DNA of 64,000 nucleotides from Coriobacteriales bacterium. Lineage in GTDB: Bacteria > Actinomycetota > Coriobacteriia > Coriobacteriales > UMGS124. A program made the translations under genes and the position numbers. Shown in pieces: positions 17,698 to 37,383 of this stretch. The notes beneath the pieces were generated by a model that worked only from the letters and a program-made list of their open reading frames with translations, searched no databases and was not told the origin of the DNA. The stretch's first letter is position 1; each line of letters opens with the position of its first letter. The stretch lies in NCBI GenBank assembly GCA_017515595.1, contig JAFWFL010000080.1, positions 1,200-65,199 on the forward strand, given 5' to 3'.

Positions 17698-17716
17698 CAT
17701 ACCGAAAGGAAACACA

Positions 17717-17893: not shown

Positions 17894-17935
17894 TCCAATT
17901 CTACTTTTTATTCTTATCATACGATCGGAGCAAAA

Positions 17936-18385: not shown

Positions 18386-18478
18386 ACCCAAAATATTCAA
18401 CAACCATAATCAACAAACATAAATAACTGAAATATGGTGAATTACGTAGCTCATAAAACGGAAAAGAAACAAAATGGT

Positions 18479-19033
18479 TTATTGTTTTTCATCATCTGAA
18501 ATCATCCATCGTTTTGGTGTTTTGATTTGATGAAAGCGAATCGAGGGTCTTGTAAGTCTTATGTCGGTAAACCCCTGAATTGTATCAACCACATCACTAT
18601 TGCAAGAATCATTAAGAAGTATTAATGATAAAGCACCAGTTGGACACGCTTCGACACAAGCCGGTATTTCTCCTCTATCCTGACGGGTTGCGCACATGTT
18701 GCAACGGGTTACTTTATTGGTAGAAGCATTGTATTGCGGAGCATGGTAGGGGCAAGCTGTCACACACCTACGGCAACCATTACATAGACTCGAATTTATT
18801 TCAACAATCCCGTCATGTCTCTTATTAAATGCCCGCTCGGGACATACTCGGAAACACTCCGGATTTTCGCAGTGATTACATGCCATCGAGAGAAAAACTC
18901 CCTCTTCGATCTCAATTACGTGACGCCAGTGAATATGAGAAGGAGTTAGGTTTTCATTACGGCACGCCATTTCGCATGCCCGGCATCCAATACAAAGGCT
19001 GACATCAACAAGAAAAGCCTTCGGGTTGTTCAT
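18479..19033 (-). CDS. 4x[4Fe-4S] ferredoxin-type subunit (DmsB/PsrB-like) of the Tat-less molybdoenzyme
   Basis: 184 aa with four Cys clusters: CIGCRACEMAC, CNHCENPECFRVCP, CNGCRRCVTACP and CNMC..ACVEACP. Its start overlaps the upstream catalytic-subunit gene by 29 nt. Confidence 0.88.
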   Translation of the reverse strand: MNNPKAFLVDVSLCIGCRACEMACRNENLTPSHIHWRHVIEIEEGVFLSMACNHCENPECFRVCPERAFNKRHDGIVEINSSLCNGCRRCVTACPYHAPQYNASTNKVTRCNMCATRQDRGEIPACVEACPTGALSLILLNDSCNSDVVDTIQGFTDIRLTRPSIRFHQIKTPKRWMISDDEKQ

Positions 19034-21014
19034 ATGGGCTCACCTTTCTGATGCGGACCTTGCAATCAAAAAACGGGCAACTCTCTGCTGAAGGAAATGA
19101 CCCTCCAAAAAGATTGTTTACACAGAACCGATCGCTCTGTTCAACATAGACAACATTATTGGGAAGTTTTGCATTAACACAAGCCTCAGAAAGCATCGAT
19201 CCTCTTGCAGAGCACACCTCAATGGTATCTCCATTACGAATCTCTTGATTTGAGGCAATATGTGAGGATATCTCAGCGGTTGGCATCTTCTTTTGCATGG
19301 GATTAAGCCAGGTGAGAGTCTCATATTGAGAGTGAAATTTCAAAAGAGACTGAGGTGTAAGTAAATAATAAGGATAATCACAAACTGACAGACTGATTTC
19401 TGAATGTAAGTCAGATAATAAAGAACTATCAAAACAATATCTCCAGGTATCCGGGAGAGGTTCTTTGATTTTCTTAAATGACTGTTTGCGCAAATCATCA
19501 ATAGAGTTAAAACCGTACTCATCCTCCATCTGAGGAATAAAAAACTTGCATATCCAGTCAAGTGCGTTCATTTCTGATGGAAATGCCGAGAAACCCGGTT
19601 TGATTCGGTTTATATAGCTTGATAGTTCTCGGGCAATTTGCAGATCACTCTTTGATTCATAAAATGACGGAAGAGTTTTTTCATTCAAGGTAAGCCAATT
19701 ATGCCAAAAACTGACAATCAGATCTTCTTCCTCAAAAAAGGACGCTGCCGGCAACACAATGTCTGCTTGGCGGGCTGTTTTTGTGAGATACAAATCAACA
19801 CACACAACTAGCTCCAGCTGGCTAAATAAGTCATACCAAGCAGCTAAGTCAAAACCCTGTGAAAGAGGGTTGGCACAAGAAACCCAAAGCATTTTGAGAG
19901 GAGGATCCTGCAGGCCAAGAGCTTCTTGAGGAAAGGTATTTATATTAACAAATCTTCCCTCGCCATCAGTGCTGTGAGGTTTGCAGTACTCTATCATAAA
20001 CTCAGCAGGATCAGTGTAAGCTTTATTGTAAAAGTACAGACCTCCACCGGCAGTATAATAACTCCCTGTTAACGCAATCAATGCACTGATTGCGTTAACC
20101 GCTTTTCCAGCGCCACGATACCGTTGCATCCCAAACCCTGTCAGACATGCTATCGCGTTATGCTCCAAGAACAATTTACATAAACAATCAAAAGCTTCCG
20201 TTGAGAGTCCTGTATGAGAAAGTACCTCATCTATTAAAAGCCTATCGAGCTCCCGGGCAAATTCAGCGTAACCACATGTGTGTTCCTTTATAAAGCCTTC
20301 ATCTATGTGTTTTACTTCAACGAGCCGTTTGGCAATACCCAATGCCAGCCATTCATCAGAATGAGGCTCGATTTGAAAATAGTAATCTGCTCTCTTTGCT
20401 GTATTGGTAAAAACCGGATCTATAACAACAAGAGGAACGCTTTTGTCTTTACGGGCTTTGTAAATAATACGCATCAGATTGATATTTGTAGATGTAGGAT
20501 TTCCTCCCCAAATAACAATAAGATTAGCTTTATGCATGTCTTCAGGATCAGGGTGAGGAAAACTTCCCATGGTCTTCTCGAGCACATGTATTCCGGTGTC
20601 GGCGCATATGTTTCCTGTCAAATTGGTACACGATCCCAAACCGGCAAACATACCTTCAACAGCATGGTGAAGAAGGCCAATGTTTCCCGTTCCTTTATAG
20701 TATCCAATGGCTTTATTGGACCCAAAGGTTTTGTTGAGCTCAATTATCTTTAATGAAATAATATCATAAGCCTGGTCCCAGGAAATACGCCGCCATTCCC
20801 CTGATCCGCGGCGCAGTTGTTTGAGTGGATATCTTAAACGATAATCATCAAGTGTATATTGAATAAGTGAATAGCCTTTTGCACAAAGACTCCCTTGGGT
20901 ATAGCCATGCTTTGAATCGCCAATTACTCTTATTAGTCTTTCACCTTTTACATTGGAAAACATTGCGCATGATCCGTAGCAGTGACGCGGACAGGCATTG
21001 CGAAATTGAGTCAT
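19005..21014 (-). CDS. Molybdopterin (bis-MGD) oxidoreductase catalytic subunit, no Tat leader (predicted cytoplasmic), substrate unknown
   Basis: 669 aa from ATG 21014 (MTQFRNACPRHCYGSCAM..GSLCAKGY = C-x3-C-x3-C..C FS0 cluster motif). Overall layout is that of COG0243-type molybdopterin oxidoreductases (..VIWGGNPTSTN.., ..VVIDPVFTNTAKRAD..). No RR motif is present in any upstream in-frame extension. Confidence 0.85.
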   Translation of the reverse strand: MTQFRNACPRHCYGSCAMFSNVKGERLIRVIGDSKHGYTQGSLCAKGYSLIQYTLDDYRLRYPLKQLRRGSGEWRRISWDQAYDIISLKIIELNKTFGSNKAIGYYKGTGNIGLLHHAVEGMFAGLGSCTNLTGNICADTGIHVLEKTMGSFPHPDPEDMHKANLIVIWGGNPTSTNINLMRIIYKARKDKSVPLVVIDPVFTNTAKRADYYFQIEPHSDEWLALGIAKRLVEVKHIDEGFIKEHTCGYAEFARELDRLLIDEVLSHTGLSTEAFDCLCKLFLEHNAIACLTGFGMQRYRGAGKAVNAISALIALTGSYYTAGGGLYFYNKAYTDPAEFMIEYCKPHSTDGEGRFVNINTFPQEALGLQDPPLKMLWVSCANPLSQGFDLAAWYDLFSQLELVVCVDLYLTKTARQADIVLPAASFFEEEDLIVSFWHNWLTLNEKTLPSFYESKSDLQIARELSSYINRIKPGFSAFPSEMNALDWICKFFIPQMEDEYGFNSIDDLRKQSFKKIKEPLPDTWRYCFDSSLLSDLHSEISLSVCDYPYYLLTPQSLLKFHSQYETLTWLNPMQKKMPTAEISSHIASNQEIRNGDTIEVCSARGSMLSEACVNAKLPNNVVYVEQSDRFCVNNLFGGSFPSAESCPFFDCKVRIRKVSPYEQPEGFSC

Positions 21015-21151
21015 ACGGCAATACCCCCTCAATCAGACAACAGCGTGGGCTTCAACTCATCCCGCCTGCATTTTTAGCTGGCACCAACAAAAATAATACG
21101 TAATTATACTTGAAGTATTGTTTAGTTTTGAACCCAGCATCTTACAAAAGA

Positions 21152-22408
21152 TTATATAGTTTTATCGATGATATGCAAGCGCTTAATCTTAAACACAGCA
21201 ACAAGATTTAAACGCGTCTCCATGTCATTAAGAGAGCAATCCAGAATAGACTCTATTTTTGAAAGCTTGTATCGCAGGGTATTTCGGTGCAAAAAAGTAA
21301 TCTGTGCGGTCTCGTTTACACTAAAACCGCATTCTACAAAGCTTTCGAGAATACTTAGAAGATCCTCCTTTTCGTCTTCATACTCAAGAAGCGGCCCAAG
21401 AATTTGATGAAAGTACCCTCGTAGATCTTCAAGATCGTGTTTAAACAGAATACAGTCAAGACCCATTTCATTGAAAAACGAAATTTTTTCTCCCTTTAAG
21501 GTGCCAATCTCAAGAGCAATTTTCGCTTCTTGGAAGCTACGGAAAAGATCTACGGGCTCCTGATATGGCTGTCCTACACCACATGCGAGAGACGATATGC
21601 CGTTGTTCTCGTCAAATGATTTGAGAATATCCTCAAAGAGGCCAATTACTTCTCGTTTTTGATCAGATTTGCAGTTTCCTTTTGTTTCAATTACTGCTGT
21701 TATCATATTCCTGCTGATAGTTGTCCCCGTACTTGTCCCCCATTTTGAAGCGAGAACCCTGTCAACAGTAGTCTTAAGTATCTCTGCTGAATAGGAGTTT
21801 TGCAGAGTAGTAGAATAATCATAGGTACTGACCACCAGAACAAGATGCGGATGGTGAAACTCCCAGCCCCATATTTTGCCCATAGAAATAATATCGCTAT
21901 TGCTTTTTATGTTGCCAAATAACAGGTCATAGAAAAAGGCTTCTTTTAGTCTGCGGTTTTCTTGTTTGATACTTACTCGATTTTTGATGTGTGTCACATA
22001 AAGTGATAACGCCACTTCTATTGAGTCGTTAAACCTAGTGGGGATAGAACTATCTTCATCGCACAGAACGAGACAATATCCAAGCACTTGCTCATTCTGG
22101 GTTATAGTCCATCCGAATGAGCGGTATTGATTTTCTGTTCCCACTAAAACGCATGAAAAGGTGTATTCGTTCTCATTAACAGGCTTGCGCTGTATAATAC
22201 GATAGCCATTAGTTCCGAGGTTGTCCGGCGATGCAGCAACCACCTCTCCGTCAGCAGCCAAAACAACAACGGGACTATTTATCATAAGAGACAGGGCATC
22301 TGTAAGGGCACTGACATTCCGACCGGATGCTATAATCAATTGTTTAATGGTAACCTGCGATGCAGCATTATCATTGTCTGATTTCATGCTCTCACCTGTA
22401 ATTCTCAA
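21152..22408 (-). CDS. PucR/CdaR-family transcriptional regulator
   Basis: 418 aa. The C-terminal HTH ..NETAQITFLHRNTLRYKLSKIESIL is the PucR C-terminal HTH signature. The alternative start ATG 22387 (MKSDNDN) follows GGTGAG. Confidence 0.82.
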   Translation of the reverse strand: MRITGESMKSDNDNAASQVTIKQLIIASGRNVSALTDALSLMINSPVVVLAADGEVVAASPDNLGTNGYRIIQRKPVNENEYTFSCVLVGTENQYRSFGWTITQNEQVLGYCLVLCDEDSSIPTRFNDSIEVALSLYVTHIKNRVSIKQENRRLKEAFFYDLLFGNIKSNSDIISMGKIWGWEFHHPHLVLVVSTYDYSTTLQNSYSAEILKTTVDRVLASKWGTSTGTTISRNMITAVIETKGNCKSDQKREVIGLFEDILKSFDENNGISSLACGVGQPYQEPVDLFRSFQEAKIALEIGTLKGEKISFFNEMGLDCILFKHDLEDLRGYFHQILGPLLEYEDEKEDLLSILESFVECGFSVNETAQITFLHRNTLRYKLSKIESILDCSLNDMETRLNLVAVFKIKRLHIIDKTI

Positions 22409-22416
22409 AGACAGGG

Positions 22417-23109
22417 TTATTGCCAGGCATTATCCAACTCAAGAATAATATCAGCATAGTTTTTAAGGAACCGGGCAACAGCAAGAGCGGCTTGCGGATA
22501 GAGCAGGCATGGCATTGCGGTTTGGATAGCATTTGCGAAACTATCAATCCATACAAGCAGGTGCTTGTTTAAAAAATGCTGTTGGCTAAGCAGGCTTTTC
22601 TTGGCGTTTTCCATATCTCCCTGCTCGTAATATGAAAAAGCAGAGGCGGCCAGGTGTGCCATAAAATCTAACTCAAGAGCAAGATGATCATCTGCTTCAT
22701 GCGGATAATTACTCGGAACATAGCCATGCTGTTTATACAGCCTGCGCACATCAAATGTGCAAGACTGGAAAAGCATACGCTCATCAGTTGCAAAAACTGA
22801 TTCCCAAGGCGGGGCCGGAAGTTTTGATGGCCCAACTAAAAGATGCGTGTATTCGCTTAACAAACTGTCAAGCAAGCTGTCGTGATCTGCCAATCTTTTT
22901 GATGTAATATCCTCAAAAGCATTAAGAAGTATTTGCAGGTTTTCATCATTTTCATTGAATACCATGCCAAGTACGCTGAATGTATACTTATCAGCAAACA
23001 CATCAAGCATGGCATCATCTGGCTCGCTTCCAAAAATTCGATGAAAAAGCTGGTAGCTGTAATGGCACGCAGCCAGTATAACGGCAATGCTATCGTCTTG
23101 TGTAGCCAT
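22417..23109 (-). CDS. TorD/DmsD-family redox-enzyme maturation chaperone (module 1)
   Basis: LLVGPSKLPAPPWESVF..YPHEADDHLALELDFMAHLA is the TorD/DmsD signature. The start is set at ATG 23109 by alignment with the paralog at 37504. The track start at 23127 is a TTG. Confidence 0.85.
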   Translation of the reverse strand: MATQDDSIAVILAACHYSYQLFHRIFGSEPDDAMLDVFADKYTFSVLGMVFNENDENLQILLNAFEDITSKRLADHDSLLDSLLSEYTHLLVGPSKLPAPPWESVFATDERMLFQSCTFDVRRLYKQHGYVPSNYPHEADDHLALELDFMAHLAASAFSYYEQGDMENAKKSLLSQQHFLNKHLLVWIDSFANAIQTAMPCLLYPQAALAVARFLKNYADIILELDNAWQ

Positions 23110-23133
23110 GAATAAAACCGCCTTCAATGTCCC

Positions 23134-23163
23134 GAACCCCTTCCGTCAAACCGGAAGGGGTTC
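23134..23163 (-). other. 12-bp GC-rich hairpin between the Fe-S subunit gene and the chaperone gene (module 1)
   Basis: GAACCCCTTCCG (23134-23145) and CGGAAGGGGTTC (23152-23163) are exact complements with a 6-nt loop. There is no U-tract on the coding strand. Confidence 0.7.
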
Positions 23164-23223
23164 AGAGGTTATTTCTGATGAATGTATATTATCATGCATT
23201 CACTCTGATTACAGACATATATT

Positions 23224-23802
23224 CTAAACTTGTTTTTCTCTGAAATCCGGTAATTCAGCGCATGCTTTGCAGGAAATCAGAAGAGAAGGCTCTGTCATGC
23301 CTGCTGATGGCAGAATGGGGAGTTCACTCACAACGTCATCACCATGCTTCGCTCTGAGCTCATCTAAATCTCCAAATTCAAGAGCCCTCATTGGACATGC
23401 GTCAACACATGCCGGATTCCATCCATTATCGCGAAGCTGTTTGCAGCTGTCGCACTTTTGAACTATGCCCAGAGACTCAATATACTGCGGAACTGAATAA
23501 GGACAAGCTTGGATGCATGACAGGCAGCCAATGCATAGTTCATCATCGTGTTGTACGGTTCCATCTTCAGCAACAAACATGGCTCCAACAGGACATACGG
23601 GAACACATGCCGGATTTGCACAGTGGTTGCAAGTTCCCGAATAGTGATATGCTTTGGTTTGAGGGAATACTCCAACTTCAAAGGTTCGAACATTCCGGAA
23701 AAGAACTCCTATTTCAAGATTATTCTTATCCTTACAAGCAACTTGGCAGGCACGGCATCCGGTGCAGATGGTTTGATCAAAATAGAATCCCAGGGTACCC
23801 AT
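23224..23802 (-). CDS. DmsB-like 4x[4Fe-4S] electron-transfer subunit (module 1)
   Basis: 192 aa with CTGCRACQVAC, CNHCANPACVPVCP, CIGCLSCIQACP and CDSC..ACVDACP. Its ATG overlaps the stop of the A subunit (TAATG). Confidence 0.9.
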   Translation of the reverse strand: MGTLGFYFDQTICTGCRACQVACKDKNNLEIGVLFRNVRTFEVGVFPQTKAYHYSGTCNHCANPACVPVCPVGAMFVAEDGTVQHDDELCIGCLSCIQACPYSVPQYIESLGIVQKCDSCKQLRDNGWNPACVDACPMRALEFGDLDELRAKHGDDVVSELPILPSAGMTEPSLLISCKACAELPDFREKQV

Positions 23803-26510
23803 TACTCGTCATCTCCTTCCACAACAGCGATTCTCTGAGGACGTTCGACATCGGGGAGAAGGGGTTCTCCTGCGTACTTCTCAAACGTTACAATATTCGA
23901 ATTGAAAGCCTCAACACCTTGACCCTGAAGCAGTGCACTTGTCAGAATATTGTCTGCACCGCCCCTGTCGATGCCGGTTTCGGGATCAGGATCTACCCAA
24001 GAACCATGAGGGAGGCTAACAATACCAGGCATAAGCCTCTCGGTAACAACAGCCCTACGCAACGTCTTGCCATTCATGTTCTCGATAAGAACGGTATCGC
24101 CGTCTTCAATTCCCTTTTCGCGAGCATCTGATGCATTGAGATATACAGGGTTCGGAAATGCCTCACGCAGCTGAAGTACGTTGTCAAAACCGCTATGGGC
24201 ACGACGCAGGTAATGCGGGTTGATAATTTGATATGGGTATGCACCTTTCTCTTTGGTTTCCCAATTTTCAAAGGTACATTCATAGCCATTCTTAGGAGGT
24301 ACGTAAGTAGGCAAGGGTTTAATCTCACTCCAGCCTGCTGCATTGATTCGCTCGGCAAGCCCGGTCGAGTAGATCTCGATCTTTCCGCTGGCTGAAGAAG
24401 GCAGAGGATGAGCTTCAGGATCATTACGGAATGCTTCGAAAGCAATATAGCCATAGTTGTCACCGGGGCTACGCTTTACCTGATAGTATCCCGTCTTCAA
24501 GAATTCTTCGAGAGAAATCTTGCCTTCTTGCGGAGTACCCTCAACACCCCATGATTCAATATCTTCTTCAGTGATCGTAATGAGAGGACCATAGTCAACG
24601 CCATTGTCCTGGATTACTGTACAGCTCTTAAGCTCATTAAAGAATTGCTGCTTGGGTCCAAACGGATACACGCTGTCAACGTCAACTCCCAACCGCTTAC
24701 ACAACTCAATATCAATCTCTTGATCAGTTTTTGCTTCAAAGAGAGGCGGCACAACGTTGCGGTAAGCAATAACAACTTCGCGGTTGGGGAAGGAGTTTCT
24801 GGGGAAACCACCAATGGTTTCCCATTCAGTGGTTGTAGGAAGAACAAGGTCAGAGAACATCGCGCTGGTTGAGAGTGTGTAATCCTGTGTGACTACAAAC
24901 TCGACCTGTCTAACTGCTTCGATACCGCTGTTCATATCTTCAGCGGTCTGAAGCTTGTTCATATACTTATAGAAATAAATCATTTCGATATCGATATCTC
25001 GCTCTTCCCTCGGAAGATAGAGACTCTTCCCACAGAAATTATATTTGTGGGTAAGGATTGCATTCCATACCTCGCCCAGATGGATAGCATCATCAACCGG
25101 GTTTGATATTGTAGGAAGTCCGGCTGATCCGGGATTGACCAGCGAGAGACCGCCATTTGCGGTAAAATAGCTGTGGCTTGGGCCTGTCATGTGTCCCGAC
25201 TTACCCATATGGCCGGTCATGGCACCAATTGTCGCAATCATCTGAGGAAGGTTATCGGAATTCTGCGTACGTGCGCTTGCCCAACCACAAACAATGGCAA
25301 CCTTTTTGTCAACACGCATCTCCTGGGCAAGATACCTAATGCGCTCAGGTTCAAGACCGCAGATCTCAGATGCCCATTCAGGTGTCTTAGGAATACCGTC
25401 ATAAGTACCAAGCACATAATCCTTAAAGTTCTCTTCAGGATTAACACCTTCAGGCATATGATCTGCATCAAAACCCAAAGTACAACGGTCAAGGAAGTCC
25501 CAATCAATAAGAGGATTGTTTTCAGGATCATCTTCAGTGATCAGCGTATAGGCAACACCAAGGAGTAATGCCATATCGGTACCGGGGCGTACAGGCAACC
25601 AATCAGCGTCCATAGCTTGGGCAAGGTCATTGTAATAAGGATCAACAGCAATAAACTTGGCACCGGTTTTCTTTGCCTGAGCCCAATGATAATTATTAGT
25701 ACCGGCAGAATTCCATGCAGTATTGAGTGAAATCATAATGATGGTCTCACAATTACGCAGATCAAGCCTGTCGTTAATAGTATCGCGAGACGTGTATGAA
25801 GCCGCCCATTGAATATAGCCGGGGCGGTCAAAGACAGGATAGCTATAAGGCATATAGCCCATTAAAAACGGAGTAACCTGCCAAGAACCATATGAAGTAG
25901 AACCATAGTGAGACACGGCTCCACCATAAGAATTAATAGCGTTACAAGGTCCACCAAATGAAAGGATAGAACGGTTTCCGTACTTCTCGACAACGCGTTT
26001 AATCTCGCTGGACAGGATATCAAAAGCCTCATCCCATGAAATACGCACCCATTCATCCCTGCCGCGCAGCGATTTGTCTCCGCCACCTGGCTCCCAATGC
26101 TTACGCTTCATAGGGTACTTAAGACGGTCAGCTCCAAACACATTCTTGCGCTGGGAACGGCCGCGAATACAACCGCGTTGCTGAGGATAATCTGGTGAAT
26201 CCTCGTGAGTATCGTCTGTTTTCTGACGTACAACTTCGCCGTCTACAACTAATGCATAGTTAGCGCACTGACTACCACAATTGAACCAGCAGGCTGCGGG
26301 AATCCATTCTCCCTTATCACTCACAGCGATGTCCACGGAAGAATTGGTATCTTCTGCTTCAGTTTGTTCTGCACTCACCATATCTGCAAGTGCTAAACCA
26401 TTACCCATATGGCTTGTAAAGGCCAATCCAACGGCACCAACTGCAGCTGCATTCAGGAAGTCTCTCCGGTCAACCATTTTGCCGGCTGCTTGTTTAAGGA
26501 AATCTGACAT
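23802..26510 (-). CDS. Tat-exported DMSO-reductase-family molybdoenzyme, DmsA-like catalytic subunit (module 1)
   Basis: The start is set at ATG 26510, preceded by GGAGGAGTCA. Twin-arginine leader MSDFLKQAAGKMVDRRDFLNAAAVGAVGLAF. FS0 motif CWFNCGSQC..C. DmsA-like blocks DRLKYPMKRK, GTYDGIPKTPEWASEICG and SGKIEIYS. Confidence 0.9.
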   Translation of the reverse strand: MSDFLKQAAGKMVDRRDFLNAAAVGAVGLAFTSHMGNGLALADMVSAEQTEAEDTNSSVDIAVSDKGEWIPAACWFNCGSQCANYALVVDGEVVRQKTDDTHEDSPDYPQQRGCIRGRSQRKNVFGADRLKYPMKRKHWEPGGGDKSLRGRDEWVRISWDEAFDILSSEIKRVVEKYGNRSILSFGGPCNAINSYGGAVSHYGSTSYGSWQVTPFLMGYMPYSYPVFDRPGYIQWAASYTSRDTINDRLDLRNCETIIMISLNTAWNSAGTNNYHWAQAKKTGAKFIAVDPYYNDLAQAMDADWLPVRPGTDMALLLGVAYTLITEDDPENNPLIDWDFLDRCTLGFDADHMPEGVNPEENFKDYVLGTYDGIPKTPEWASEICGLEPERIRYLAQEMRVDKKVAIVCGWASARTQNSDNLPQMIATIGAMTGHMGKSGHMTGPSHSYFTANGGLSLVNPGSAGLPTISNPVDDAIHLGEVWNAILTHKYNFCGKSLYLPREERDIDIEMIYFYKYMNKLQTAEDMNSGIEAVRQVEFVVTQDYTLSTSAMFSDLVLPTTTEWETIGGFPRNSFPNREVVIAYRNVVPPLFEAKTDQEIDIELCKRLGVDVDSVYPFGPKQQFFNELKSCTVIQDNGVDYGPLITITEEDIESWGVEGTPQEGKISLEEFLKTGYYQVKRSPGDNYGYIAFEAFRNDPEAHPLPSSASGKIEIYSTGLAERINAAGWSEIKPLPTYVPPKNGYECTFENWETKEKGAYPYQIINPHYLRRAHSGFDNVLQLREAFPNPVYLNASDAREKGIEDGDTVLIENMNGKTLRRAVVTERLMPGIVSLPHGSWVDPDPETGIDRGGADNILTSALLQGQGVEAFNSNIVTFEKYAGEPLLPDVERPQRIAVVEGDDE

Positions 26511-26988
26511 TGACTCCTCCATCTTAATCAAACAACAAAAAATAGAAAGAGGCCAGATGATAAGTATCGTATTATGCGTTATTTTATGATTTGTTTAGGC
26601 TTTGGCGCCAAAAGCCCACTCTCTCATATGCAAAAACGAAATCCCTCATCTCTCCGATGTCATTTTAACACATCAATTATTCAAACCATATGTTTTAAAG
26701 CACACATTACGGTCCGTTTTTTGTGCACGGGTTACAGTACAAACGCATTCGTGTTGTCATGAATTAGGGAAATATCTGTGCGCAGGAACAATACTGAAGA
26801 GTCCGTTGCTCTTTTATGTTGTGTCCCATGATTTATGTGATCCATGTTTTACCTGCGGGTTTGTAAAATCATCAATGAGATGTGAGGACATTTTTGAGCG
26901 GGTAGGGCACACTTATGGGCAAGCCAGACGTCGTGAAGACATACGAATGGCGTTTATTCAAACTGTTCTCATGAAAGGGGAACTTAGC

Positions 26989-28545
26989 ATGGAAATGAAT
27001 CGTAGGCAATTTGTTGCTTCATCCGCAGCCGCTGCAGCTCTCGCCGCAAGCGCAGGTATTGTTTCTTCTGCAGCAGCAGACGAGGCTCCTGCCCAGTCAT
27101 GGCGTGTCCGCCCGGCAGCCGTAACCGAGTTTGCCGAGGAAATCGACGCTGACGTTGTTGTTGCCGGCGCCGGCATCAGCGGTGTTTGCGCAGCTCTCAA
27201 GGCTGTTCAGATGGGCGCAAAGACTGTTGTTCTTCAGAAGAGCCCCTACGTTATGACCCACGGCGGCAACTTTGGCGCCATCAACGACCGTTTCCAGAAG
27301 GAAGCCGGCAACCCCGAGATTGACCCCATGGACATTCTTCAGCATCACCTCAAGTACAACAACTATCGTCCGCAGTTTGAGTACGCAAAGTGCATCTTCG
27401 CCGAGAGCGCCGAGACTCTCGAATGGATTGCCGACTCAACCGACACCACCTGGAAGGCCTCCACTCCTCGTGAGACCAACAAGATGGACTGGGACAACAC
27501 CACCTTTGTTACCGGCCACAGCAACAGCGCCGGCAAGGCAATTGACCTTGCAAACGTTATCATGAACAAGGCCATTGAGCTTGGCGCCGAGCTTCTGCTC
27601 TCAACCCCCATTGTTGACACCATCGAGGACGAGAACGGCCGCGTTATCGCCGCTGTTGCCCAGCGTCTCGAGGATGGCGCTTACATCAAGGTAAACGCTG
27701 CTAAGGCCGTTATCCTCTCCACCGGCGACTACGGTTCAAACTATGAGATGTGCGCCGAGATGTGCCCCTGGGTTGTTGGCACCCACAACTACTACAACCC
27801 CAACGACAACACCGGTGACGGCCACAAGATTGGTACCTGGCTGGGCGCCAAGATGGAGACCCTGCCCCACACCAAGATGGCCCACATCCACAACTCAATC
27901 GACGGCAGCAACCTCACCGACTCTCCCGTCAAGAGCGACCCCTTCCTCTGGGTTAACCAGGACGGCAAGCGTTTCGCCAACGAGCACATGGAGTATGCAA
28001 TGGTCTGCAACACCGTGCGCGAGCAGCCGGGCGACGTCTTCTATGTAGTTCATGACGCAAACTACAACGCTCAGCGCGCAGCCTTCCTCAACGCCAAGGG
28101 CGAAATCAAGGACGAGCAGATCGAGACCGCAATCGAGCTTGGTTACACCGTTAAGGCCGACACTCTTGAGGAGTGCGCAGCTGCCATGGACATTCCTGCA
28201 GAGGCTCTTCTTGAGACCGTTGCCCGTTACAACGAGCTCGCAGCTGCCGGTATGGACGAGGACTTTGGCAAGCCTGCTCAGGATCTTCAGCCCATCGAGA
28301 CCGCTCCGTTCTATGTAACCCGCACCTACACCCCCATGGACGTAACCATGGGCGGCCTTATGGTCAACACGAAGATGCAGGTTCTCAAGGAGGACGGCAG
28401 CATCATTGAGGGTCTTTATGCAACCGGTAACACCGCCGGCGGCTTCTACGGCGGCATTGACTATGACCTCGAAGTAGACGCATTCAGCCTTGGCCGCGCC
28501 GTAACTTCCGGCCGCCTTGCCGCTCAGTACGCCTGCGCCGAGTAA
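26989..28545 (+). CDS. Tat-exported FAD-dependent oxidoreductase (fumarate-reductase/flavocytochrome-c flavoprotein-like)
   Basis: The start is set at ATG 26989 (MEMNRRQFVASSAAAAALAASAGIVSSAAA, a Tat leader), after AAAGGGGAA. Rossmann motif DVVVAGAGISGVCAAL. C-terminal GLYATGNTAGGFYGG. The 129 upstream codons of the track ORF are rejected. Confidence 0.87.
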   Translation: MEMNRRQFVASSAAAAALAASAGIVSSAAADEAPAQSWRVRPAAVTEFAEEIDADVVVAGAGISGVCAALKAVQMGAKTVVLQKSPYVMTHGGNFGAINDRFQKEAGNPEIDPMDILQHHLKYNNYRPQFEYAKCIFAESAETLEWIADSTDTTWKASTPRETNKMDWDNTTFVTGHSNSAGKAIDLANVIMNKAIELGAELLLSTPIVDTIEDENGRVIAAVAQRLEDGAYIKVNAAKAVILSTGDYGSNYEMCAEMCPWVVGTHNYYNPNDNTGDGHKIGTWLGAKMETLPHTKMAHIHNSIDGSNLTDSPVKSDPFLWVNQDGKRFANEHMEYAMVCNTVREQPGDVFYVVHDANYNAQRAAFLNAKGEIKDEQIETAIELGYTVKADTLEECAAAMDIPAEALLETVARYNELAAAGMDEDFGKPAQDLQPIETAPFYVTRTYTPMDVTMGGLMVNTKMQVLKEDGSIIEGLYATGNTAGGFYGGIDYDLEVDAFSLGRAVTSGRLAAQYACAE

Positions 28546-28574
28546 AACACACGCTCAATCATACGCAGTCAGTA

Positions 28575-28609
28575 AAGGCCGTGCAGTTTAAACTGCACGG
28601 CCTTTTTTA
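28575..28609 (+). terminator. Rho-independent terminator after the flavoprotein gene
   Basis: Stem GGCCGTGCAGT/ACTGCACGGCC (28577-28587 / 28592-28602) followed by TTTTTT (28603-28608). Confidence 0.85.
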
Positions 28610-28612
28610 TGG

Positions 28613-28645
28613 CTTCCCCTTGAGGGGAAGGCTTCTTTATTTTTG
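28613..28645. terminator. Second hairpin (CTTCCCC-TTGA-GGGGAAG) plus a T-rich tail in the convergent intergenic region
   Basis: 7-bp GC stem at 28613-28630 followed by GCTTCTTTATTTTT. It lies between the convergent genes ending at 28545 (+) and 28647 (-) and probably serves both directions together with the previous hairpin. Confidence 0.5.
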
Positions 28646-28646
28646 G

Positions 28647-29918
28647 TTATGCTCCGCGAGTTCCTCTTGAAGGCGTGATGATATGACGCAGGTCAATATC
28701 TTCCGGCCCCAAGTATTCCGGTTCAGGGGCTGAAGGCTGAGCGGCAGTCTTTGCTTTTTCTGTCTCAAATTCATTAACCGGAACTGCTGAATGAAGCTGG
28801 ATTGACCTGCAGGCATGAGACAGCTCGGCCATAGTGTTTGCGTCTGCCTGTGAAGAATCACACAGAGCAGCCAGCTGAATATAACCATCCTTACCAAATA
28901 CCATGGTTATCCAGCCAACATAGGGTGTGCCCTCAGCCTCTGCGGTAAACGTTACATAATATACATAAGAAGAGTCTACGGCATAGTGCAGCCACTGAAG
29001 CTTCTCGACATTCTTGAGGTGGTTATTTGAGGCGATAAATGAATCAAAGGTTTTATTTGCATCGCTCTCGGGATCGTTCGAAACAGAGCTGTCAATGTAA
29101 ATCTGCAGGTTTGCATCATAGCTATCAGCCGGGATATACGTGATAAGCGTGGTGTCACCAAACCCCTGTGCGAGCGGCTTCCAATCTGCTGCGACCTGAT
29201 AGGTAAATATGTCGTTATCCACTGTAATGAGATGAGTGTCCAATTGAGAAAGCAAATCAGCCGAGAGTGCATTTTGGCCCATGGCGGGTGCAACCGATTC
29301 ATGAAGAATACTGGCCATAAGCAGGTCTTCCTGGTTGTCTGACGGGAATACCGAGAAAACCGTGCTGTATGCGTCTGCGCTAAACACCGTGGTAAACAGT
29401 GCAAGAAGAGACACTCCGTCAGCCTCTCCCACCACACTTGTCATAACAACGGCCGACCCATCAAGTTCATAGCTGCTAAAGCCTGCAATTTGCGGGTTTT
29501 CAAAGCCATATGCAGTCGTAATATCAAGTGCAAGCTTTTGAGCATCCTTAATAAAATCAGTTGATTTATTGGGAACAGGGTTTGTCATAACGCAGAAGCT
29601 CATATCAGAGGACTCAAAAAATGAAATGAGTCCATCCTCAGAGATATTACTTTCCCATATACCCACAACCGGGAAAAATACATACTCGTTGCCAAGCTCA
29701 ATAAGCACCGGAGTATCGGACGGCGCAACAAAGGTATCCTTGGATTCAGACTTGATGCTCTCATCCAGTACCTGGAAAACCTTATCCAGCCCAAATGGGC
29801 TTTTAGTCTCTGAAGCATGCGCATATACCGGCGTTACTACCGCCGTTGCTAACAACCCGCCCATAAGAACAGCTGCGATTTTCTGGACTTGTGCGGACAA
29901 ACTCCGACCTCGAACCAT
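28647..29918 (-). CDS. Secreted hypothetical protein
   Basis: 423 aa. Signal peptide MVRGRSLSAQVQKIAAVLMGGLLATAVVTPVYAHA. No recognisable catalytic motif. SD AAAGGA. Confidence 0.6.
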   Translation of the reverse strand: MVRGRSLSAQVQKIAAVLMGGLLATAVVTPVYAHASETKSPFGLDKVFQVLDESIKSESKDTFVAPSDTPVLIELGNEYVFFPVVGIWESNISEDGLISFFESSDMSFCVMTNPVPNKSTDFIKDAQKLALDITTAYGFENPQIAGFSSYELDGSAVVMTSVVGEADGVSLLALFTTVFSADAYSTVFSVFPSDNQEDLLMASILHESVAPAMGQNALSADLLSQLDTHLITVDNDIFTYQVAADWKPLAQGFGDTTLITYIPADSYDANLQIYIDSSVSNDPESDANKTFDSFIASNNHLKNVEKLQWLHYAVDSSYVYYVTFTAEAEGTPYVGWITMVFGKDGYIQLAALCDSSQADANTMAELSHACRSIQLHSAVPVNEFETEKAKTAAQPSAPEPEYLGPEDIDLRHIITPSRGTRGA

Positions 29919-29999: not shown

Positions 30000-31352
30000 T
30001 TAGAACAGCAGGGGCTGGTCAAAAGCATAGAGAGCTTCGTTGATTTCAAATATGTCATAATTGCCCTTAAGGATAAAGTACTCAACAATAACGTCTGCTT
30101 TGCTGCTGCTTGAAAGCGCATATCCCGCACGCTGAAGCAAATCTTCTGTTTCTTCGAGATTGAGTTCGAGGGCAACCGCCAGTGCGAGAGCGGTCTTTTT
30201 GGTAGGACGGTATCCCTCATCACTGCGAATCTTGCTAAACAGCTGCCTGCTCATATTTGCACGCTTGTATACCTGGGCATCTGTTAACCCTCGTGCGTCA
30301 ATAAGAGCAATAAGCGTGGTCGAGAAGGGCTCGTCGAGGCTATCGAGCAGGGCTGCCAAATTCGATGGTTCCCGCACTGACCCCGGAGCTTTTTTCGCTC
30401 CAGAAACGGGAGCACCAAAATCTGCCTGCGGTTCCCACGAGTATTTCTCGGCTGCTTCTTTAGGGGCATAAGAAGACGGGGCTTTTTGCTCACGCGAGCT
30501 ACCTGCAAGTAGCTCTTTGATGCGCGTCGCAATGTTTCTTGCGCCGTCTCCCAAGGTAGATACCGGAGAAGGCATCGCGGAGCGCTTTGATGCTTTGTCC
30601 TGTACACTATCCGGCCTTGCAGAGCCTGATGCACTCCGTGTTTCTTGGTACATACGAGGCTGTGAAGGCTCCGGTTGAGGATAGCCCAGGAGCTCCTCCG
30701 GCATATTGAGAGAATAATCACGGTAAGCCTCTTCAGGCTCAGACAAAAAAACCGATTCTCCCTCAACGCTGCCGGGAAACCTCATACTCTTTGATAAACG
30801 CGACCTAGCACGAGTATCTACATAGTGGTCATCTATATATTCAGCCAGGTCGCTAAAGGCTTTAAGGCCTTCTGTTACCGATTCTTTGTTATAGAGAACG
30901 AGCCTGATTTCAACATCTTCATGCTTATCGAGAAATGTCTCAATGGCGTTGTTGGCAACTGACAGAGCGAGCTTTTGCGGGAATCCATACGTCCCTGCAC
31001 TAATGAGGGGCAAGGCAACTGACTTTGCCCCAGCATCTGTAACTGCACATGACAGAGCATTCATATAAGTGCTGAACAGCAGCTCCTGCTCGTTTGCAGT
31101 CCCGCCCTGCCAAACGGGGCCAACTGCATGAACAATCGTCTTGGCAGGTAAATTGAACCCCGGCGTTGCAACCGCATGACCCGTTCTGCAGGATCCAATT
31201 GCATCACACGCAGCCTGTACCTGCTCAAAACCGGCAGCTTCTGCCACCGCTGCCCCTACGCCACCGGTAATTTTAAGCCGCTCATTGGCTGCCACAACTA
31301 CCGCGTCAACTTTTATATGTGCAAGATCATTGCGCTCTACAAAAAACGGCAT
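30000..31352 (-). CDS. Macro-domain (ADP-ribose/O-acetyl-ADP-ribose binding/hydrolase) protein fused to a C-terminal XRE-like HTH domain
   Basis: The N-terminal ~165 aa (..IKVDAVVVAANERLKITGGVGAAVAEAAG..IVHAVGPVW..VALPLISAGTYGFP) is a MacroD/YmdB-type macro domain. About 170 aa of low-complexity Ser/Pro/Ala-rich linker follow. The C-terminus is LIDARGLTDAQVYKRANMSRQLFSKIRSDEGYRPTKKTALALAVALELNLEETEDLLQRAGYAL (HTH). Confidence 0.8.
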   Translation of the reverse strand: MPFFVERNDLAHIKVDAVVVAANERLKITGGVGAAVAEAAGFEQVQAACDAIGSCRTGHAVATPGFNLPAKTIVHAVGPVWQGGTANEQELLFSTYMNALSCAVTDAGAKSVALPLISAGTYGFPQKLALSVANNAIETFLDKHEDVEIRLVLYNKESVTEGLKAFSDLAEYIDDHYVDTRARSRLSKSMRFPGSVEGESVFLSEPEEAYRDYSLNMPEELLGYPQPEPSQPRMYQETRSASGSARPDSVQDKASKRSAMPSPVSTLGDGARNIATRIKELLAGSSREQKAPSSYAPKEAAEKYSWEPQADFGAPVSGAKKAPGSVREPSNLAALLDSLDEPFSTTLIALIDARGLTDAQVYKRANMSRQLFSKIRSDEGYRPTKKTALALAVALELNLEETEDLLQRAGYALSSSSKADVIVEYFILKGNYDIFEINEALYAFDQPLLF

Positions 31353-33715: not shown

Positions 33716-34034
33716 GATAAATAGTAATTATCGCAAGAAGAGCCTCATATTATATGCAGACATTACGGATATCGGGAAATGTGCATGTGAACAACCACTA
33801 TTCACTGGGGGATGGGTTTTACCAAATGTTAAGTTAGTAAACCTCGTACCTGCATATTCTTAGTAATTCATACATTTTTATGACATGCTTTTTGGACTTT
33901 AGGGTCTTTGGATGATACCCGGAACGGGCTTTGCGGCTCATACTTACAGAACCGGGCGTTTTGGCAATTTGTTTTTTAGTCTTTTGCCACCCACCCGCGG
34001 AGAGAATACCAAAAGGGATCAAGGAGGGAGAAAC

Positions 34035-36701
34035 ATGTCGAAATACCTCGATAAGGCCGCAAGCCCGTCTCTTGACAGGCGCCAGTTCCTACAGGTTGCC
34101 GGAGCGGTAGGCGCGCTCGCAGCGACAGGGCTCGCGGGTATCGACAATTCGCTTGCTTTTGCAGACGAGAATGCCCCAAGCCAGGCAGACCTGGAAGAGG
34201 GCAAATGGGTGCCGTTTAACTGCACCACCATGACCTGCGCATACCGTTGCCTTAACCAGGCATACGTAGTTGACGGTGTGATTACGCGCCAGGGTACAGC
34301 TGACATTCATGAAGATACCGAGGACTTTCCGCAGTTCAGGCCCTGTGCAAAAGGCCTGAGCACGCGTCGCATTGTCACAAGCGCCGAGCGTCTTAAGTAC
34401 CCCATGAAGCGTAAGAACTGGAATCCCGGCGGCCAGGATTACCATCCTGAGCTGCGCGGTGTTGACGAGTGGGAGCGCATTAGCTGGGAAGAGGCTATAG
34501 ACCTGATCGCCGGCGAGTTCACCCGCATTAAGGATGCCTACGGCAACCGTTCATTCCTCTCGCTTGGCGAGCTTGAGCCACACCTTGTTGCAGGACTCAT
34601 TGGCAGCCCCATTCTCAATGCCATTGGCGGATGCCTTACCACCTGGGGCCAGGCCTCACAGGGCGGCTTCCCGGTAGTTGGCTATAAGATGCGCGGCGCC
34701 TGGTCAATGGGTGTTGCCGACTCGCAGGACCGCATTGGTCTCAGGCACTCCAAGCTCATTGTATTCTGGGGTACCAACCCCGCATGGTCCGCAAGCGGCG
34801 GAGACATGCATGCGTTCCTGAGCGCCAAGAAGGCCGGAGCCAAGATTATCTTTATTGACCCTTACTTCAACGAAACCGCAAAAACCGTTGCCGACGAGTG
34901 GATTCCCTGCCATGTTGGCACCGACGGCGCCCTTCTCGAAGCTCTCGCATACGAGATGATTGTCAATAACCTCCAGGATCAGGAATTCCTTGACAAATAC
35001 TGCCTTGGCTTTGACGCTGACCACATGCCCGAGGATGCTAAGACAGACGAGAACTTTAAGGATTACATCCTTGGCACCTATGACGGTATCCCCAAGACGG
35101 CAGAGCGTGCAAGCGAAATCTGCGGCACCCCTGTTGAGATGATCAAGAACCTTGCATACGAGATTGCCACTACCAAGCCCATGGCCTGGAAGTCTTCAGG
35201 CGCTCCAGCACGCACCTATTACGGCAACCGCTATGCACAGCTCTTCTTTACCGTTGGCTGGATGACCGGCAACGTTGGCAAAATTGGCAGCGAAGTTTCT
35301 GCTGGTGCATCCCAGCCCATGAGCCACCTGGGCACCCCCGGCGGTACCGGTATGGTTGCCTACGGCGCTTCCGGATACAAGTATCCGCCTAACCCCATTT
35401 GCACCGAGCCTCGCGGCGGTGGCTATTTCCAGGCTGGATACTACAATCCTGAGCAGGAATATGGTATTCCGTTTACTCAGACCTTTAAAGCAATTGTTGA
35501 CGGCAAGTATGCACTCCCCGGCCCCAACGGCCGCACACAGGAGTGCGACATCCGCTGTATTGTACGTGATGACTGCCACCAGCCGGCAAGCCAGCAGAGC
35601 GGTGGTTGGTATGTTCAGGATGCATTCCGCAAAGAAACCGTTGAGTTTGTACTGGTACAGGACCGCTATCTGGTAACCGACGCACAGTATGCTGACATTG
35701 TACTTCCTGTTACCACCTCTCTTGAGGATGACTACAGCCTGCCGTCACAGCAGGCATCCGAGCTCTGCCTCTTTGGTCAGAAGGTTATTGAGCCTTACTT
35801 TGAGTCCAAGAGCGACCCTGAAATCTTCTTTATGCTCTGCGATAAGCTTGGCATTGGAGAAGACATTGCCCCGCGTATGACCGTAAAGCAATCCCAGATG
35901 AACAAGGTCATGGGCGCCACCATTCTTTCTGAGGACGGCACTCGTGTACCGCTTGTCGCCATTACCCAGGAAGACCTTGACGCCGAGGGCGTAACCGGCG
36001 AACCGCATGACGGCCTGGTACCGTTTGCCGAGTTCAAGGCTAATGGCGGCTATCAGATTGAGCGCAAGGACGGCGACCACTTTATCAATATCTTCCACAA
36101 GGCATTTATTGATGATCCTGAGGCCAATCCTGTGAACACTGCTTCAGGCAAGTATGAGATTTATTGCCAGTCGCTTAAGGATTACTACGAGTGGTGCTGC
36201 TTCAATGACATTGACGCACTTCCTAAGTACAAGGCTGCTCCGCAAGGCGCTGAACAGGCACGCGAAGAAGCAGAGTATAAGTATCAGCTCATCACCCAGC
36301 ATACCATCCGTCATTCACACAGTTCGTTTGGCAATGTCAAACAGCTTGACGAGATGTATCCTATGGACTTTGTTATGAGCGCTTATGATGCCGGGAAGGC
36401 CGGCTTTAAGAAGGGCGACTGGGTACTGGTTACGAGCATGGAAGGCGGCCAGGTTGTGCGCCGTCTCAACGTGATTCCGCAGCTTATGCCCGGTACGGTA
36501 TTCCTGGGCCAGGGCAGCTGGCGTCAGATTGACCAGGCAACCGGCATTGACATGGGCGGAAACACCAACACGCTCTGCCGTAGCGAGCTTTTGGGTGACG
36601 CATATCAGTGCTATAACGGCAACCTTGTTAAGATTGAGCTTTACAACGGACCGACGCCTGAGCTTGACTACAAGCGTGCACCTATCGTAGCAGGACTGTA
36701 A
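34035..36701 (+). CDS. Tat-exported DMSO-reductase-family molybdoenzyme, DmsA-like catalytic subunit (module 2)
   Basis: The start is set at ATG 34035, after AAGGAGGGAG. Tat leader MSKYLDKAASPSLDRRQFLQVAGAVGALAATGLAG. FS0 motif CTTMTCAYRC..C. Blocks ERLKYPMKRKNW, GTYDGIPKTAERASEICG and SGKYEIYC are shared with module 1. Confidence 0.9.
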   Translation: MSKYLDKAASPSLDRRQFLQVAGAVGALAATGLAGIDNSLAFADENAPSQADLEEGKWVPFNCTTMTCAYRCLNQAYVVDGVITRQGTADIHEDTEDFPQFRPCAKGLSTRRIVTSAERLKYPMKRKNWNPGGQDYHPELRGVDEWERISWEEAIDLIAGEFTRIKDAYGNRSFLSLGELEPHLVAGLIGSPILNAIGGCLTTWGQASQGGFPVVGYKMRGAWSMGVADSQDRIGLRHSKLIVFWGTNPAWSASGGDMHAFLSAKKAGAKIIFIDPYFNETAKTVADEWIPCHVGTDGALLEALAYEMIVNNLQDQEFLDKYCLGFDADHMPEDAKTDENFKDYILGTYDGIPKTAERASEICGTPVEMIKNLAYEIATTKPMAWKSSGAPARTYYGNRYAQLFFTVGWMTGNVGKIGSEVSAGASQPMSHLGTPGGTGMVAYGASGYKYPPNPICTEPRGGGYFQAGYYNPEQEYGIPFTQTFKAIVDGKYALPGPNGRTQECDIRCIVRDDCHQPASQQSGGWYVQDAFRKETVEFVLVQDRYLVTDAQYADIVLPVTTSLEDDYSLPSQQASELCLFGQKVIEPYFESKSDPEIFFMLCDKLGIGEDIAPRMTVKQSQMNKVMGATILSEDGTRVPLVAITQEDLDAEGVTGEPHDGLVPFAEFKANGGYQIERKDGDHFINIFHKAFIDDPEANPVNTASGKYEIYCQSLKDYYEWCCFNDIDALPKYKAAPQGAEQAREEAEYKYQLITQHTIRHSHSSFGNVKQLDEMYPMDFVMSAYDAGKAGFKKGDWVLVTSMEGGQVVRRLNVIPQLMPGTVFLGQGSWRQIDQATGIDMGGNTNTLCRSELLGDAYQCYNGNLVKIELYNGPTPELDYKRAPIVAGL

Positions 36702-36732
36702 GCAGCCAACAAAAAAGATTGGAGGCCTGACA

Positions 36733-37371: not shown

Positions 37372-37383
37372 TGTAGTATTCAT

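Follow-up and report, generated by a model that had tools for sequence, protein, structure and literature searches.

A predicted exported flavin reductase with strong codon adaptation in a Coriobacteriales genome and its probable, distantly placed transmembrane LuxR-type regulator

A 64,000-nt stretch of DNA from a Coriobacteriales bacterium (assembly GCA_017515595.1, contig JAFWFL010000080.1, positions 1,200 to 65,199 of the forward strand; hereafter the window) holds at 26989-28545 (+) a flavoprotein gene with an open reading frame (ORF) of 518 aa, in which a leader of the twin-arginine translocation (Tat) type is followed by a single FAD_binding_2 catalytic unit of the fumarate reductase/KstD superfamily. 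We consider it rather probable that this flavoprotein belongs, as a single-domain enzyme containing flavin adenine dinucleotide (FAD), to the arsenal of respiratory-like flavin reductases found in Eggerthellaceae-type Coriobacteriia, acting through the mechanism set out below, and its probable cognate regulator is encoded elsewhere in the same window. The sequence-only reading of this DNA had described the product as a highly expressed extracytoplasmic reductase for an unknown substrate. The family assignment, the leader and a codon usage like that of the top genes uphold this description, while the high expression itself can only be deduced from codon usage.

The family assignment follows from both sequence and structure. 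PF00890 (FAD_binding_2) matches residues 55-489 (3e-44, 152.3 bits compared with a cut-off of 20.4), and the Pfam matches to FAD_binding_2, DAO and FAD_oxidored have a common start at residue 55, the first residue of the FAD-binding Rossmann motif DVVVAGAGISGVCAALKA (residues 55-72; 27151-27204, +). Within it, the GxGxxG motif at residues 55-65 reads DVVVAGAGISG, with V56, V57, V58, G60, G62 and G65 invariant among 18 orthologues, and the FAD-binding motifs that had been pointed out earlier are confirmed. The AlphaFold2 model has a mean predicted local distance difference test (pLDDT) score of 86.6, and its top Foldseek matches are UrdA 6t86 (template modelling (TM) score 0.86 on the target, E = 5e-39), Fcc3 and KstD, with a probability of 1.00 for UrdA, Fcc3, KstD and cyclohexanone dehydrogenase. 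TM scores of about 0.66-0.73 were obtained for KstD (4c3x, 4at0), AcmB 7p18 and cyclohexanone dehydrogenase 8am3, and identity to the top 35 Foldseek PDB matches ranges from 17 to 26%. By sequence, the best PDB matches are Shewanella flavocytochrome c3 and urocanate reductase, to about 1e-36 and with 23-26% identity. All NCBIfam equivalog models stayed under their cut-offs. The best-scoring curated model was that of VprA, NF053717 (197.1 bits versus 600; 5e-58), which aligns residues 53-515 with positions 6-478 of 481; TIGR01813 (flavocytochrome c) reached 185.8 bits against a cut-off of 285.45 (1e-54), and the KstD models (NF009478 and related) reached 166.8 bits versus 789, in two separate stretches, the best of them up to 6e-49. 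The comparison by homology and structure that had been proposed as a check therefore gives no characterised enzyme to which the flavoprotein is orthologous.

Residue-by-residue HMMER alignments to 1jrz and 1kss place the stretch 27883-28464 (+) opposite the Fcc3 active site. There, Fcc3 His365 is retained as His299, while the catalytic acid Arg402 is replaced by Tyr336, the proton-relay residues Arg381 and Glu378 by Lys315 and Ser312, Thr377 by Asp311, which is invariant in the orthologues, His504/His505 by Asp451/Val452, and Arg544/545 by Asp491, adjoining a 4-residue YDLE insertion. The replacements are kept across the orthologue clade. Furthermore, neither a CXXCH motif nor a hit to PF04205 (FMN_bind) was found in the flavoprotein, PF04205 being present in some more distant homologues, and the cysteines conserved in the orthologues are two or three only (C255, C259, C340). 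The loss of Arg402, His504 and Arg544/545, together with the missing haem motif and FMN_bind domain and the small number of conserved cysteines, indicates that the flavoprotein is not a fumarate or urocanate reductase, as far as can be predicted. Several cinnamate-reductase clades, from Eggerthella lenta and H. filiformis, are without both Arg residues and reliant on a conserved Tyr (Little et al., bioRxiv 10.1101/2022.12.26.521950). Such Arg-less, Tyr-dependent enzymes make a mono-carboxylate or a neutral activated alkene the most reasonable substrate class, and by this analogy a cinnamate-like, vinyl-aromatic, enone or lactone substrate would be more likely than fumarate or urocanate.

In regard to export, a Tat signal peptide is predicted at residues 1-30 (MEMNRRQFVASSAAAAALAASAGIVSSAAA followed by DEAP; 26989-27078, +), its cleavage site being deduced from the sequence. 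After the twin-arginine motif NRRQFV come a hydrophobic stretch rich in Ala and then AAA, before the DE with which the mature protein would begin. In the 18 aligned orthologues R5 and R6 are invariant and F8 is nearly so. Among the NCBIfam models matched by the N-terminus are several of Tat-exported proteins, such as NapG, NapA, NosZ and the hydrogenase-2 small subunit, and residues 1-34 are disordered in the AlphaFold2 model (pLDDT <50). The Tat leader that had been reported previously is thus well supported by its motif, though not proven.

The gene forms a stand-alone transcription unit. The translated N-terminus, MEMNRRQFVASS (also written MEMNRRQFVASSAAAAALAASAGIVSSAAADEAP), begins at an ATG located 5 nt downstream of a Shine-Dalgarno-like ribosome-binding site (RBS), the 12-mer TGAAAGGGGAAC at 26972-26983 (+), which has the same letters in the closest orthologue locus, L010, and the start at ME[LM]xRR recurs in 18/18 aligned orthologues. 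Downstream of the gene, an intrinsic terminator at 28574-28607 (+) consists of a perfect 14-bp stem (AAAGGCCGUGCAGU/ACUGCACGGCCUUU) and a U-tract (U6), with a folding energy of -25.6 kcal/mol and z = -6.9, and a second, weaker hairpin is present at 28613-28630 (-14.2 kcal/mol). The 3' neighbour at 28647-29918 (-) is convergent, and a monocistronic gene with a strong terminator, as described before, is what these features amount to. This neighbour, which has the terminator region in common with the flavoprotein gene, codes for a protein of 423 aa whose N-terminus has a signal-like hydrophobic segment; its product gave no Pfam or NCBIfam match, and the gene was not found beside the orthologues in other genomes.

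Composition changes abruptly at the gene, as had been noticed on first inspection: in 500-nt intervals, G+C content (GC) is 39.4% in 26501-27000 and 57.4-57.8% in three intervals of the gene. Codon statistics were calculated over 47 window genes, and the atp operon was used as a leave-one-out reference for the codon adaptation index (CAI), being a proxy in a window without ribosomal-protein genes. Among the 47 genes, the flavoprotein gene has the lowest effective number of codons (Nc; 33.7), the highest frequency of C at third codon positions (C3; 0.50, with G and C together, GC3, at 0.70) and the highest CAI, 0.837, compared with 0.802 for atpD and 0.768 for atpA. It favours GTT, CGT and CTT and shuns GCG, GGG, CGG and GTG, the same as atpD and atpA, and its deviations in relative synonymous codon usage from the background correlate with those of atpD and atpA taken together (r = 0.75). 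The proposed likeness to the atp genes is thereby confirmed, and the CAI, calculated against the atp proxy and not against ribosomal genes, is anything but unremarkable. As preferences for T-ending codons go together with avoidance of GC-rich ones, the bias is not a matter of simple GC pressure. In close orthologues, too, Nc is the lowest in their own loci (26.0 in L001 and 25.0 in L017). A second exported flavoprotein, encoded at 54085-55677 (-), is equally biased (Nc 34.1, CAI 0.820), and because it sits on the other strand, strand bias is not the cause. We infer high expression of the flavoprotein from codon usage of this kind, and the very strong adaptation suggests that it could be a major rather than a marginal activity of the organism.

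Orthologues of the flavoprotein are few. They show 46-86% identity and come from metagenome-assembled genomes of Coriobacteriaceae/Eggerthellaceae, from Adlercreutzia sp. Marseille-QA1605 (69%) and from Enterorhabdus. The clade carries the motifs HNYYxPxxNTGDGH, HTKMAHIHNxIDG..LTDSP, YTPMDVTMGG and GGIDYDLEVDAFSLGR, and the sequences retrieved show it to be confined to Eggerthellaceae-like genomes; it was not found in Eggerthella, where the best match has 31% identity. The next tier, at 29-39%, includes other Eggerthellaceae paralogues and many proteins of Dehalococcoidia, Anaerolineae and Syntrophomonadaceae, with NTGDGH and GN..G.F[FY]..DYP....SHGR as common motifs, and the superfamily counts 10,481 clusters (50% identity) at E <= 1e-3 and 992 at E <= 1e-30. 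In the related loci, flavin reductases occur at 2-5 per 10-20 kb. A literature search retrieved nothing newer on the orthologue clade.

Several observations were made along with this survey. Homologues with 33-39% identity (L023-L091) come from Dehalococcoidia, Anaerolineae, Syntrophomonadaceae, Seleniivibrio and Sporomusa; they share NTGDGH and GN..G.F[FY]..DYP....G.SHGR and are without the fumarate-reductase Arg and His residues, an indication of a broad, functionally unassigned subfamily in the environment. A 5.2-kb contig deposited as Alistipes onderdonkii (L016, CAVJGP010000168.1) carries an 80%-identical orthologue and is probably mis-binned, since all other orthologues come from Coriobacteriia. 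In L003 (3879-5723, GCA_029782595.1), the orthologue P0007, with about 70% identity, is broken into ORFs of 490 aa and 108 aa, owing either to an assembly error or to a frameshift that made it a pseudogene.

According to the sequence-only reading, no regulator of the gene was evident locally, and this part has to be revised, since a full-length orthologue of the regulator paired with the reductase in other genomes is encoded at 15913-17574 (-). Its product has a GerE domain at residues 493-546 (4.5e-12) and 10-12 hydrophobic segments in residues 94-434, counted in a Kyte-Doolittle hydropathy scan and not with a dedicated transmembrane predictor. With a C-terminal GerE/LuxR helix-turn-helix (HTH) after 10-12 predicted transmembrane helices, it belongs among the 10-12-transmembrane LuxR-type proteins, which in Coriobacteriia are substrate-responsive activators (Dong et al. 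2022). The reductase orthologue lies directly 3' of a same-strand GerE gene of ~490-530 aa in seven loci, L001, L010, L012 (identical in L011 and L013), L017, L018, L019 and L020. The 15913-17574 product is 40% identical over 516 aa to the regulators of L012 and L017, 35% to those of L018 and L001, 32% to that of L019 and 28% to that of L020, and it matches the L010 regulator with 54.5% identity over the 207-aa fragment present there. The other LuxR genes of those loci, as well as the gene at 38200-39654 of the window, match in the ~80-aa HTH only. Identities of regulator and reductase drop together (54/86, 40/80, 35/80, 32/70 and 28/60%), as expected for a co-inherited pair. In the window, the regulator gene is located 9.4 kb from the reductase gene and on the opposite strand, and is thus not its direct neighbour. 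It is nevertheless the probable cognate sensor/activator of the reductase, as judged from orthology. A PucR-type regulator is also present (21152-22408), in the operon that is divergent from the flavoprotein gene.

The 9-kb interval between regulator and reductase, 17575-26531, is a block of low GC3, the values of its genes being 0.32-0.43 compared with 0.51 for the regulator and 0.70 for the reductase. It starts, in DNA of about 30% GC, with genes for a HicA toxin (~17717-17893) and an HTH_17/HicB-like protein (17936-18385). These are followed by a molybdenum (Mo) reductase with its iron-sulphur (Fe-S) subunit (18479-21032), the PucR regulator, situated at the end of a dmsABD-like operon, a TorD-type chaperone (22417-23127), and the dmsB- and dmsA-like genes (23224-26531), which are divergent from the flavoprotein gene. 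In the loci examined, tblastn found no DmsA- or PucR-like gene beside the reductase orthologues, and no gene for an Fe-S subunit was present within ~9 kb of them, the sole match being a DmsB/FeS-like gene ~9 kb off in L020. The regulator-reductase pair could accordingly have been split by an insertion or a rearrangement, of which the block would be the trace. A single inversion of 15913-26531 was also considered; it restores the order of regulator and reductase but strips the dmsA-like gene of its upstream region, and is not claimed here.

The divergent intergenic region between the flavoprotein gene and the dmsA-like operon (26532-26988, 457 bp) is AT-rich, with 40% GC, and must hold the promoters of both units. 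It contains ORFs of 62 aa and 45 aa only, without similarity elsewhere, in line with the earlier statement that no credible ORF is present, and no conserved ORF that could encode a real small protein was detected. The suggested Rfam search, run at permissive E-values over 26400-28750, returned sub-threshold noise only and thus no match to the region. RNA folding of 26700-27000 was not significant (z = -1.26), and a scan for the sigma-70 consensus gave 2 sites versus 2.0 expected, one of them at 26665-26694, which is chance level. MAFFT alignment, short-word blastn and tblastx served to compare the region with the orthologue loci and with the remainder of the window. Neither tblastx nor blastn of 26532-26988 detected similarity to the related loci or the rest of the window, and the comparison with the orthologue loci gave no remnant of a LuxR pseudogene. 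Outside the RBS and the 5' end of the coding sequence, AGATGTGAGG at about -105 is the sole exact match of at least 10 nt to the L010 upstream region, and the 13-mer CTGTTCTCATGAA recurs ~390 nt upstream of the L007 orthologue.

In this 40% GC DNA, the 130 codons 5' of the ATG (26599-26988, +) contain no stop in the frame of the flavoprotein, while the other five frames have 7-11 stops each, and in a first-order Markov simulation an open length of 130 codons appeared in 0.11% of trials. The stretch is closed in the orthologues and has no similarity to the related loci fetched. A public gene call of 556 aa, P0002, begins inside it. The conserved RBS and start, and the stretch not being open in the orthologues, speak against an N-terminal extension as in P0002, and the open stretch is treated here as chance or as recent decay of once-coding DNA.

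In regard to the electron donor, no window ORF of 80 aa or more contains a CXXCH motif. The Fe-S protein closest to the gene (23224-23802) is part of the divergent Mo-reductase operon, and the orthologues examined are adjoined neither by it nor by the Mo enzyme of that operon. The same loci show no conserved partner beside the orthologues, and no reductase of the window is accompanied by a membrane-anchor subunit. The previous statements that no cytochrome, Fe-S or membrane partner is adjacent and that the donor is not local therefore hold. The gene is in this like numerous arsenal reductases encoded on their own, and the simplest reading would be a donor that is encoded elsewhere in the genome and common to other reductases. 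The window itself, at 64 kb, contains two exported flavoproteins, three Mo-reductase loci and two transmembrane LuxR genes.

The mechanism that we propose for the flavoprotein starts with folding around FAD in the cytoplasm, which would be followed by Tat export, so that, in this monoderm, the protein would work on the outside of the membrane. Electrons would come from a quinol-oxidising carrier encoded outside the window and probably common to other reductases; by analogy, such a carrier could be Cgr1/NapC-NirT-like, or flavinylated. Hydride from FADH- would then be passed to the activated C=C bond of an organic acceptor, most likely of the kinds named above and not fumarate or urocanate, and protonation would go through Tyr, His and Asp residues (Tyr336, His299/His301, Asp311, Asp451), where fumarate and urocanate reductases use an Arg-based site. 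The substrate would probably switch on transcription through the transmembrane LuxR protein of 15913-17574, whose gene would have been moved 9.4 kb away and onto the other strand by a rearrangement or insertion. Once induced, the gene could reach very high expression owing to its strong codon bias.

Such an enzyme would fit well among those described for Eggerthellaceae, whose genomes encode tens of exported PF00890 and PF00384 enzymes each, most of them uncharacterised, with frequent transmembrane LuxR neighbours and substrate-specific induction (bioRxiv 10.1101/2022.12.26.521950). Like the members of this arsenal (E. lenta UrdA, IrdA, CrdC/CrdD and many paralogues), the flavoprotein has a PF00890 unit with a predicted N-terminal export signal; no donor gene lies beside it or its orthologues, and the orthologues are paired with a transmembrane LuxR. 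Arsenal members occur as many paralogues per genome alongside Mo-reductases, and the window has one further flavin reductase and three Mo-reductase loci. Some arsenal clades also resemble it in being without both active-site Arg residues and reliant on Tyr. It differs in that its regulator is displaced by 9.4 kb and its clade was not found in Eggerthella, although reductases without an adjacent regulator are listed by Little et al. as well (bioRxiv 10.1101/2022.12.26.521950). The absence of a neighbouring donor and a substrate that is unknown would, on this comparison, be typical of the arsenal class, and the match to a published class makes the case less surprising. In this sense, the class to which the flavoprotein belongs was described in 2018-2024, and the flavoprotein is typical of it.

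Other systems are related to a lesser degree. Cgr2 of E. lenta (Koppel et al. 2018, PMC5953540) is likewise a Tat-predicted FAD_binding_2 protein of Coriobacteriia with a divergent active site, a LuxR-type regulator in its neighbourhood and a non-dicarboxylate substrate, the last being a conjecture in our case. However, Cgr2 is co-transcribed with the membrane cytochrome Cgr1 of the NapC/NirT type, whereas the present gene is monocistronic in 64 kb without CXXCH. Furthermore, Cgr2 needs [4Fe-4S] cluster(s), while no Fe-S site is evident in the flavoprotein; the cluster of Cgr2 is itself not predictable from sequence (Koppel et al. 2018, PMC5953540). Shewanella Fcc3 (1qjd) and UrdA (6t86) provide the best fold match, bind FAD and have His365 as the counterpart of His299, but the flavoprotein is without the multihaem domain of Fcc3, the flavinylated FMN_bind domain of UrdA and the two active-site Arg residues. 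VprA of Lactiplantibacillus plantarum (NF053717), which reduces a vinyl group and needs no carboxylate, gives a full-length model match, yet the 197 bits versus 600 do not make an equivalog, and the match begins at residue 53, leaving the Tat-type leader outside it. KstD, AcmB and cyclohexanone dehydrogenase belong to the same superfamily, but the scores are far below the cut-offs, and those enzymes are dehydrogenases.

Several other explanations of these data have to be weighed. It could be proposed that the flavoprotein is coupled to the divergent dmsA-like operon, with PucR (21152-22408) controlling the common 457-bp region and the two enzymes serving one compound family, for example in the reduction and dehydroxylation of a phenolic acid, or using the DmsB-like Fe-S subunit in common to relay electrons. 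The divergent arrangement around one common intergenic region would suit such a coupling, as would the position of PucR at the end of the dmsABD-like operon, the lack of a membrane-anchor gene near either enzyme and the fact that the cognate LuxR gene is no longer adjacent. We nevertheless regard both the coupling and the phenolic-acid example as doubtful, because the orthologues examined with tblastn have no DmsA- or PucR-like gene beside them and are paired with the transmembrane LuxR instead, and because codon usage is opposite in the two units (CAI 0.84 versus 0.46-0.59, GC3 0.70 versus 0.36-0.43), which indicates different histories and different expression levels. The contrast in composition could also be taken to mean that the flavoprotein is a horizontally acquired GC-rich gene, since GC jumps from 39% to 57% at the boundary and the neighbours are far apart in GC3. 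This is very improbable: the gene uses the codon set of atpD and atpA, has the top CAI relative to native atp genes and avoids GCG, GGG and CGG, and a native set typical of highly expressed genes means that horizontal transfer is not the explanation of the composition. The same pattern is seen in the second flavoprotein, at a distance of 27 kb, and the anomalous DNA is rather the adjoining low-GC3 block with its toxin-antitoxin pair.

As for the reaction itself, enzymes of the KstD type carry out Tyr- rather than Arg-type chemistry on a C=C bond conjugated to a carbonyl. The flavoprotein could be a desaturase like KstD or cyclohexanone dehydrogenase, oxidising a C-C bond next to a carbonyl outside the cell, and both its Tyr-based site without Arg residues and its matches to 3-ketosteroid-delta-1-dehydrogenase models of NCBIfam (up to 6e-49) and to KstD and cyclohexanone dehydrogenase structures (TM score about 0.7) would agree with this. 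Of two fragments aligned in search of counterparts of KstD Tyr487/Gly491 at the DY(D/P) motif, one of 44 aa had no PDB match, and for the other, of 163 aa, the KstD alignment ended before the motif. The KstD models reach 167 versus 789 bits, UrdA and Fcc3 are better matches in both sequence and structure, an exported dehydrogenase in a strict anaerobe needs an external acceptor, and the characterised Eggerthellaceae relatives are all reductases, so that we hold a desaturase to be improbable. It is hardly credible, in turn, that the flavoprotein is a fumarate or urocanate reductase of the soluble flavocytochrome c/UrdA type. Although this group gives the best PDB matches in sequence and structure and TIGR01813 matches at 1e-54, the score of 186 bits falls short of 285, Arg402, His504 and Arg544/545 correspond to Tyr, Asp and Asp, and both haem and an FMN_bind domain are missing.

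It is also possible, if unlikely, that the flavoprotein has a new function, as an exported flavin reductase that acts on a non-carboxylate acceptor at a Tyr/His/Asp site, and that it was freed from its sensor by the rearrangement and now acts as a principal respiratory enzyme, either made constitutively at a very high level or controlled from the PucR/dmsA side. If true, escape from the sensor would explain a codon adaptation above that of ATP synthase.

Assignment of the flavoprotein to the arsenal of exported flavin reductases has several points to set against it. Its activity, localisation and expression are all predicted, codon bias being the only proxy for expression, and the Pfam TAT_signal model scores 14.4 bits, under its cut-off of 22.7. 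The catalytic direction, reductase or dehydrogenase, is not fixed by sequence, as the fold is common with KstD-type dehydrogenases, and the likeness to the E. lenta enzymes of Little et al. rests on published descriptions. The link to the regulator is drawn from orthology and from synteny in other genomes. The upstream DNA is not conserved with that of the orthologues, an operator motif common to 17575-17935 and 26532-26988 was not found, with no more in common between them than between shuffles, and a search of 15700-16100 and 17500-18000 against 26400-27050 yielded no direct or inverted breakpoint repeats of at least 11 nt.

What becomes of dietary, host and drug molecules such as digoxin, itaconate, urocanate and cinnamates in the gut is decided by exported flavin reductases of Eggerthellaceae. 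To these enzymes, the present case adds a small and defined orthologue clade, from Adlercreutzia, Enterorhabdus and uncultured Coriobacteriia, with a non-canonical active site and a conserved, dedicated transmembrane LuxR. Dong et al. propose that reporter screens with transmembrane LuxR proteins could reveal the substrates of uncharacterised enzymes, and given this proposal, the conserved sensor could offer a practical handle on the substrate. No new category is opened by the flavoprotein, and the way in which FAD-only exported reductases get their electrons is not settled by this case.

Some further genes of the window deserve mention. The second flavoprotein (54085-55677, -) has 530 aa and a leader with SRRSFV, scores 19.7 bits with TAT_signal and has 30% identity to the first; it, too, is without equivalents of Fcc3 His504/505 and Arg544/545, and a gene for a LysR-type regulator (55887-56873, +) is divergent from it. 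Three loci of the DMSO-reductase family are present in the 64 kb (18479-21032, 22417-26531 and 33912-38184), each with a catalytic and a 4Fe-4S subunit. None of the three has a gene for a membrane-anchor subunit; a chaperone of the TorD/DmsD type occurs in two of them, and one is adjoined by the transmembrane LuxR gene at 38200-39654. Unrelated to the flavoprotein are a 502-aa secreted protein with an NADase_transloc (F5/8 type C) domain, encoded at 30-1538 (-), and a 450-aa protein encoded at 30000-31352 (-), in which an N-terminal Macro domain is followed by a long C-terminal extension.

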